Origin: a virus | UHGV virus genome: UHGV-0041832 | DNA: 52,506 nucleotides | Strand: one strand, 5' to 3' | Shown: positions 26,676 through 26,755 of the stretch, piece after piece | How the letters are laid out: every line of letters begins with the position of its first letter | How positions within the stretch are numbered: position 1 is the stretch's first letter | Translations under genes and position numbers: made by a program | Notes under the pieces: generated by a model | Seen by the model: the letters and a program-made list of their open reading frames with translations, nothing else | Told to the model about the DNA's origin: nothing | Databases searched by the model: none

Positions 26676-26704
26676 TTGTAGGGCGTAAACAAACAGATTA
26701 AAAT
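26676..26704 (+). promoter_or_regulatory. Candidate late (PR'-like) promoter upstream of lysis cassette
   Basis: TTGTAG (26676-26681), 17-nt spacer, TAAAAT (26699-26704). Confidence 0.45.
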
Positions 26705-26733
26705 ATTTCCTAACAATGCGAAATTGTAATTAC

Positions 26734-26755
26734 CCGGCCCCGCGCCGGGTTTTTG
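26734..26755 (+). terminator. Rho-independent terminator-like hairpin (tR'-like) just upstream of holin
   Basis: CCCGGC-CCCGC-GCCGGG followed by TTTTTG. Confidence 0.6.

Follow-up and report, generated by a model that had tools for sequence, protein, structure and literature searches.

The viral genome UHGV-0041832, 52,506 nucleotides (nt) long and referred to below as the window, carries at positions 26676–26755, directly upstream of the holin gene, a short region with the anatomy of a Q-dependent late promoter and terminator: a -10 hexamer, a pause element of the AACAAT class and an intrinsic terminator, followed by the lysis genes. The original prediction described TTGTAG and TAAAAT spaced by 17 nt, then a GC-rich hairpin and T-tract before the holin, and these can be read directly at 26676–26754. 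It also pointed to a Q-like gene at 19711–20439, far from the site, and offered two options: Q acts at a distance, or one of the small genes at 26.1–26.7 kb is the real late regulator. The features that bear on this choice, with open reading frames abbreviated as ORFs, are:

19711–20439, + strand: gene for a Q-lambda-family antitermination protein of 242 amino acids with four CxxCxGxG zinc motifs (PF03589, phmmer, phrog_127)
20439–26668, + strand: array of ~27 tightly packed small ORFs of 46–127 amino acids (ORF list)
26676–26681, + strand: -35-like hexamer TTGTAG, 3/6 matches to TTGACA, unconserved (sequence, alignment)
26687–26698, + strand: conserved spacer block AAACAAACAGAT, candidate Q-binding element (conservation, position)
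26699–26704, + strand: -10 hexamer TAAAAT, 5/6 matches, invariant in 45 aligned loci and in L187, a locus with a more distant Q
26712–26717, + strand: -10-like AACAAT, 7 nt past the -10, candidate sigma70-dependent pause element at ~+1 to +6, invariant
26718–26731, + strand: conserved initial transcribed region GCGAAATTGTAATT, mostly invariant
26732–26754, + strand: intrinsic terminator, candidate tR' and candidate end of the early rightward operon (hairpin, T-run, fold)
26762–26766, + strand: Shine-Dalgarno sequence GGAGG of the holin gene (sequence)
26775–27925, + strand: lysis cassette, the first late genes: holin, lysozyme and Rz (Pfam)

By its sequence the window is a member of the mEpimmI group of temperate coliphages, the relatives of mEp021. 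The span 19–28 kb has 85–89% nucleotide identity to mEp021, mEp010, mEp013, mEp044, mEp515, mEp554 and MagusPhagus. Prophage copies of the region are present in 35 of 5,426 complete Escherichia coli genomes, three of them 100% identical across the late site, and mEpimmI coliphages are reported to match lambdoid phages in frequency in human gut samples. The group has been described as Nus-dependent yet non-lambdoid; its phages encode Gp17, an antiterminator resembling N, together with a ‘Q-lambda-like’ protein, and they carry three nut sites (PMC11893012). Gp17 and the nut sites have been characterized in the group, and the layout of its published members (MH706966, PP180001-5, PP925836; PMC11893012) is the same as that of the window. 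In the mEp021 record, TERM_5, before the holin, is the orthologue of the window terminator, gp37 is entered as ‘putative late gene regulator Q’, and the ribosome-binding site of the holin is annotated; the gap between Q and the site is 2 kb there, compared with 6.3 kb in the window. The late promoter, the pause element, a qut site and the separation of Q from its site are undescribed in PMC11893012 and in the group’s GenBank records.

Anatomy of the Probable Late Site

The spacer between the -35-like hexamer and the -10 is 17 nt. The hairpin at 26732–26750 (ACCCGGC/CCCGC/GCCGGGT) has 7 base pairs (bp), six of them G-C, and a 5-nt loop; after the T-run at 26750–26754, 20 nt remain to the holin ATG at 26775. 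With a fold of -18.2 kcal/mol (z = -2.9), this hairpin ranks in the top two of the terminator-like sites within 18–30 kb. The holin (26775–26975, PF16080), lysozyme (26976–27467, PF00959) and Rz (27455–27925, PF03245) genes follow.

In lambda, Q loads at the second, -10-like hexamer, which acts as a sigma-dependent pause element (PMC9388147). The -10, spacer and -10-like hexamer of the window (TAAAAT-ATTTCCT-AACAAT) resemble those of lambda and P22 (TAAATT-TGACTC-AACGAT), phi80 (TAGATT-CATCTCT-AACGCT) and SE1Spa (TATCAT-AACCCT-AACAGT). As in the lambda PR'-qut-tR' system (6S RNA; 7UBM/7UBN), the -10 is followed 6–7 nt on by a -10-like AACNNT, a block lies in the promoter spacer, and an intrinsic terminator precedes the lysis genes. 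P22 (gene 23/P-late/t-late), SE1Spa (gp23) and phi80 (gp17, Q) share with the window both the Q family and the class of pause element. A T-G step at ~+14/+15 in GCGAAATTGTAATT is a possible pause position; in the closest relatives the step there is C-G. The terminated RNA of lambda is 194 nt, whereas that predicted in the window is ~42 nt. The annotated late terminator of P22 also lies near the start, at +31 to +59, so that of the window, at ~+21 to +43, is short yet precedented.

The lambda Q-binding element (QBE) sits in the -35/-10 spacer, and its 13 bp are contacted at positions 1–4 and 11–13 (PMC9388147). The AAACAAAYAGAT block occupies the equivalent spacer in the window. Its variation is confined to the central positions 26693–26695, and these conserved ends and variable centre are loosely like the lambda site. 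The sequence of the presumed QBE is unrelated, with no similarity to the lambda spacer, and the -35 is weak or absent in the window group, unlike that of lambda.

The Q Gene

The protein encoded at 19711–20439 scores 104 bits against PF03589 (cut-off 26.7), which is the Q-lambda family (PMC9388147). It matches lambda Q (PDB 7UBM chain Q) with a phmmer E value of 8e-37, aligning over residues 1–114 and 150–240, and phrog_127, ‘anti-termination protein Q-like’, at 3e-77. The gene that had been called Q-like is a bona fide Q-lambda-family homologue, a predicted antiterminator, and it lies ~6.2 kb from the site, as had been claimed. It is the only Q gene identified in the window, where not every ORF was screened for the Q21 and Q82 families.

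Residues 1–60 of lambda Q fold as a nozzle, or torus, at the RNA exit channel and touch the flap tip (PMC9388147). The nozzle segment and the zinc ribbon are conserved in the window Q. In a four-way alignment with the Q proteins of SE1Spa, phi80 and P22, residues 1–59 include 24 invariant columns, among them G39, and the two CxxC pairs of the zinc ribbon (C151, C154, C177, C180) are likewise invariant. C53 and H56 of lambda Q are replaced (L53, M56). The window Q is longer than lambda Q by ~35 residues, which include two additional CxxCxGxG motifs; this insert is common to SE1Spa gp23 and phi80 Q, and is the most variable part of Q within the group. The four motifs, at residues ~116–184, are DnaJ-like and suggest two zinc centres, where lambda Q has one CxxC...CxxC ribbon. 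Identity among the group’s Q proteins is 85–100%. The ratio of nonsynonymous to synonymous substitution rates (dN/dS) against group relatives is 0.05–0.15, with dS up to 0.69, and the Q gene is therefore maintained by purifying selection.

Conservation of the Site

The site was aligned in 45 group members, namely 42 IMG/VR loci found with Q, mEp021, the E. coli prophage L050 and the window. The 69 columns of 26687–26755 include 53 that are invariant, with a diversity of 0.06, compared with 81 of 380 and 0.19 at the third codon positions of the adjacent holin, lysozyme and Rz genes; in 10,000 resamples of those codon positions, none was as conserved as the site. The invariant stretches are AAACAAA, ATTAAAATAT, CCTAACAATGCGAAA and both stems of the hairpin. 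Variation in the hairpin is confined to the loop, which is consistent with the structure; there are no compensatory changes. The flanks of the site are mosaic, with several unrelated genes upstream and two holin alleles, 54% identical, downstream. The site motif is single-copy in the window and occurs once in each of 47 IMG/VR contigs; these are essentially the contigs in which the window’s Q is found.

Separation of Q from its Probable Site

In textbook and structural accounts the Q switch is a compact cassette, and the Q gene and the PR' transcription unit have been described as adjacent (PMC9388147). The -35 of lambda begins 44 nt past the Q stop codon, and the promoters of P22, SE1Spa and phi80 begin 26–42 nt past it. 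These last three genomes are lambdoid, whereas the mEpimmI group has been called non-lambdoid (PMC11893012). For a wider comparison, 58 further Q-lambda-family loci were taken from IMG/VR, with Q proteins 35–41% identical to that of the window. A YYAACRNT or CAATGAT motif lies 30–76 nt past the Q stop in 57 of these non-group loci (background 150 of 2,320 random 110-nt segments, 6.5%), and the remaining one has a one-base variant of the pause motif. A strict combination of promoter, pause element and terminator is found within 150 nt of Q in 43 of the 58 (background 25/2,320, 1.1%).

The window cassette departs from this rule of adjacency, with the site ~6.2–6.3 kb downstream of Q. Q and the holin are 2.0–6.8 kb apart in 47 of 47 loci measured, 45 with Q identity of at least 85% and two (L187 and L188) with 72%. 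The 6-kb separation that had been singled out is therefore real, although it is a rule for the group rather than a peculiarity of the window. In every group locus the Q stop codon (20439 in the window) overlaps the ATG of the next ORF (GAATAATGG), which leaves no room for a PR'/tR' module beside Q, and none is present there. A vestigial PR'/tR' directly after Q was considered and rejected, as the ORFs overlap in the group loci.

More distant loci show how far this layout extends. An E. coli locus (P0009) with a Q 72% identical retains the split layout and the core of the site. Where Q is 47% identical (P0010), the genes run Dam-NinG-RusA-Q, and small ORFs occupy at least the next 2.8 kb. Where it is 41% identical (P0012), the prophage is of the classical lambdoid kind: its holin lies 0.7 kb past Q, and its site is unrelated. 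A genome-contig scan for the site returned three chance matches with no homology. The mEpimmI-like lineage is thus set apart by the genes inserted between Q and its site, in contrast to all 58 of the classical cassettes sampled.

A Probable Late Switch Worked in Trans

The region 26676–26755 is probably the PR'/qut/tR' of the group, worked in trans by the Q encoded ~6.3 kb upstream. Q is a diffusible DNA-binding protein and is routinely supplied in trans in reporter assays; its distance from the site is thus no mechanistic problem. Of the two options that had been offered, action of Q at a distance is the one that fits best. In the proposed sequence of events, RNA polymerase with sigma70 would initiate near 26711–26712, sigma region 2 would rebind the -10-like AACAAT, and the polymerase would pause at ~+14 to +17. 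Lacking Q, it would terminate after ~42 nt, at the hairpin and T-run. Q would bind the spacer block, load onto the paused complex and render it resistant to the terminator, and the modified polymerase would switch on the holin, lysozyme and Rz genes and the structural genes downstream. Q itself would be produced from the early rightward transcript, which would depend on the N-like Gp17 acting with nutR2 and would run on through the array. The relative with a 72%-identical Q, which keeps both the split layout and the core site, speaks for this reading.

Several observations weigh against it. The promoter matches the consensus at 8/12 positions, below the 9/12 cut-off of the scanner, and 21 promoter-like sites reaching 9/12 were found in the region where 22.6 are expected from shuffles. 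A strict pattern (a -10, 5–8 nt, AAYRNT and a terminator within 130 nt) finds three sites on the + strand of the window, about the number expected by chance. As the promoter and pause motif is at chance level when taken alone, the case is carried by conservation and context. The spacer block is a candidate Q-binding element assigned by position and conservation alone. A similar Q directly beside a similar site was found neither in the IMG/VR pattern scan, which returned the same group, nor among protein-search intermediates. No residue of Q tracks the two upstream forms of the site described below (best uncorrected p 0.016, 71 variable columns). This covariation test is uninformative, because the C-terminal part of Q and the core of the site are nearly invariant in the group. 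N-like antitermination from nutR2 could also, on its own, carry polymerase past the terminator.

A further objection comes from the -35. Type A relatives have TTGTAG, TTGTGG or TTGTAT at this position. In type B, which comprises 11 of 44 group loci, and in L187, TCGCGC takes its place, and there is no TG extension. TTGTAG, which had been proposed as the -35, is thus unconserved in the group, and it is replaced in the relative with a 72%-identical Q. The PR' promoters of the classical Q-lambda family, by contrast, have good -35 elements. Type B resembles type A with extra bases inserted between ATTTGTA and AAACAAA, and homology with type B relatives breaks off at 26687, inside the promoter spacer, at what is a recombination breakpoint. 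The upstream half of type B carries ...CCATAATCGCGCATAAAAAAC... and has no -35. In a relative with a 72%-identical Q and the TCGCGC form, the stop codon of the upstream ORF abuts the conserved block. It is conceivable, although highly improbable, that in the variants lacking a -35 TAAAAT...AACAAT acts as a promoter-independent loading station for Q, where early polymerase would be recaptured by sigma70 and handed over from N-type to Q-type antitermination. Early read-through would then be coupled directly to the switching on of late genes.

The terminated transcript of ~42 nt might also be a functional small RNA (sRNA), made constitutively in lysogens; this would add to the role of the site as a qut rather than replace it. 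There is a precedent in StxS of Shiga-toxin phages, which are described as having a PR' that is always active and, in lysogens, is terminated immediately downstream, giving a regulatory sRNA (PMC7547250). In the window, 26712–26754 is highly conserved beyond the pause element, yet the pause, loading and terminator functions explain this conservation equally well. Rfam 15 gives no match to the late site, the best being rnk_pseudo at 23.7 bits against a gathering threshold of 55 (E 0.1). A regulatory RNA is a very unlikely addition to the action of Q in trans.

The Small-Gene Array and the Probable Early Operon

The array ORFs that lie between Q and the site match PHROG families of ‘unknown function’ in every case, and the number of relatives that have a given ORF ranges from 13 to 44 of 44. 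The array measures 2.0–6.8 kb across the group. Its last two genes, 26316–26495 and 26492–26668, are tandem paralogues, 31% identical, of phrog_15318, a family restricted to this phage group. These, or one of the five small ORFs of unknown function at 22046–23490 that every group member carries, could in principle encode a protein that acts at the site instead of Q or together with it. In 42 of 44 group loci the site has a phrog_15318-like gene within ~30 nt (or ~280 nt) on its upstream side, where Q lies in lambdoid phages, and a promoter that needs an activator could well have a weak -35 or none. The family is nevertheless absent from four loci (L024, L047, L187 and L188) in which the late site is intact, its copy number in relatives varies from 0 to 3, and the diversity of the gene is 0.42 beside an invariant DNA site. 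No Pfam domain is found in its proteins, which also lack a convincing DNA-binding fold and a clear structural relative. The AlphaFold model, with a predicted local distance difference test (pLDDT) score of 93, consists of three strands, one helix and one strand, and its structural matches are weak and heterogeneous; with a single helix it does not form a complete helix-turn-helix. The lambda-type pause architecture of the site points instead to Q. The second option of the original prediction, a small gene at 26.1–26.7 kb as late regulator, thus finds no positive support, and control by any of these small proteins is very unlikely.

The cargo of the array may be compared with that of Shiga-toxin phages of the 933W type. 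These phages also carry accessory cargo by the Q/PR' junction, and their constitutive PR' with its immediate terminator yields the short RNA StxS (PMC7547250, PMC6266700). They have their cargo (tRNAs, stx) past PR'/tR', among the genes expressed late, whereas in the window it precedes PR', occupying the stretch from Q to the site, and would therefore be expected to be co-expressed with the early genes.

An N-dependent transcript that prolongs the early rightward operon is inferred to cover Q and the array. In mEpimmI phages nutR2 has been placed downstream of the cytosine methyltransferase gene (PMC11893012). In the window a boxA-like TGCTCTTTAA is found at ~18270–18279, in the gap 18173–18331 downstream of the cytosine methyltransferase, with small GAAA-loop hairpins after it. 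If the early transcript runs through the array, the hairpin at 26732 probably ends the early operon besides serving as tR'. The terminator ‘t5’, called ‘experimentally demonstrated’ in PMC11893012, is probably the orthologue of this terminator, since TERM_1 to TERM_5 of mEp021 stand in the same order as t1–t5; the link is one of matching numbering alone.

Two other terminator-like hairpins lie within the array. That at 22305–22324 (AAGCGGGATAAAACCCGCTT then TTTTTGTT) is nearly invariant in 44/44 relatives and sits 18 nt inside the 5' end of the core ORF 22287–22520 (phrog_30442). It could be an early terminator that needs N-type read-through, or could be conserved merely as coding sequence. 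The other, a hairpin and T-run at ~24469–24498 (AAATGGCA...TGCCATTTTGTT), is found in 32/44 relatives with some variation in stem and loop. Such conserved hairpins suggest that processive antitermination is needed to cross the array.

With an N-like system characterized in the group and its third nut site upstream of ninG-rusA-Q (PMC11893012), the late site might be a terminator and nothing else. It would end the Gp17-dependent early operon, Gp17-modified polymerase would reach the late genes, the promoter and pause motifs would be unused, and Q would act elsewhere or be redundant. The boxA-like sequence, the two array hairpins, the unconserved -35 and the chance-level frequency of the motif can all be counted in favor of this explanation. 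It leaves unaccounted for the near-invariance of the 45 nt that precede the hairpin (26687–26731) and the presence of TAAAAT and AACAAT at lambda-like spacing. Q, moreover, is under purifying selection yet has no adjacent target. The site also has none of the features of an N-type nut site: no boxA is present in 26669–26774, and the hairpin loop, CCCGC, is C/G-rich rather than A-rich. A terminator without a late promoter is therefore unlikely, and the preferred reading remains a PR'/qut/tR' served by Q in trans.

Other Features of the Region

The intergenic gap of 98 nt at 24442–24539, which contains the hairpin at ~24469–24498, also contains a CRP-like site, TGTGATCTGTATCACA, at 24443–24458, in which both consensus half-sites are perfect (TGTGA-N6-TCACA). 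It lies upstream of the ORF 24540–24818 and of a predicted promoter, TTGTTT at 24476–24481 and TATAAA at 24499–24504 with a 17-nt spacer. Its centre would be near -61 of this promoter, the class I CRP geometry, and it is recognizable in ~15/44 relatives. Directly after the ORF 24829–24969, a strong G+C-rich hairpin at 24973–24992 has a T-run on the minus strand only. It could block antisense transcription; the nearby genes are all on the + strand.

The product of the gene after the large terminase (~31562–32953 in the window) is named ‘anti-CBASS protein Acb1 family protein’ by RefSeq in some prophages and ‘DUF1073 domain-containing protein’ in another (L002 10031–10295 and L051 11221–12277 vs. 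L050 11336–12132). This looks like an inconsistency of annotation for a portal-like protein.

Significance of the Split Layout

The mechanism proposed here is a known one, and the gain is incremental. What is new is the organization: a hypervariable set of genes, probably expressed early, most likely stands between Q and the site on which it acts. The two operons seem to share one terminator, and the RNA that ends there would be unusually short. If confirmed, these findings would locate the undescribed late promoter and qut of the mEpimmI group and would offer mechanistic studies a naturally occurring Q/qut pair whose binding-site sequence is new and whose terminated RNA is very short. They would also mean that adjacency of Q and its site is dispensable in nature, and that the array is early-expressed cargo, insulated from the lysis genes by a single terminator shared by both operons.

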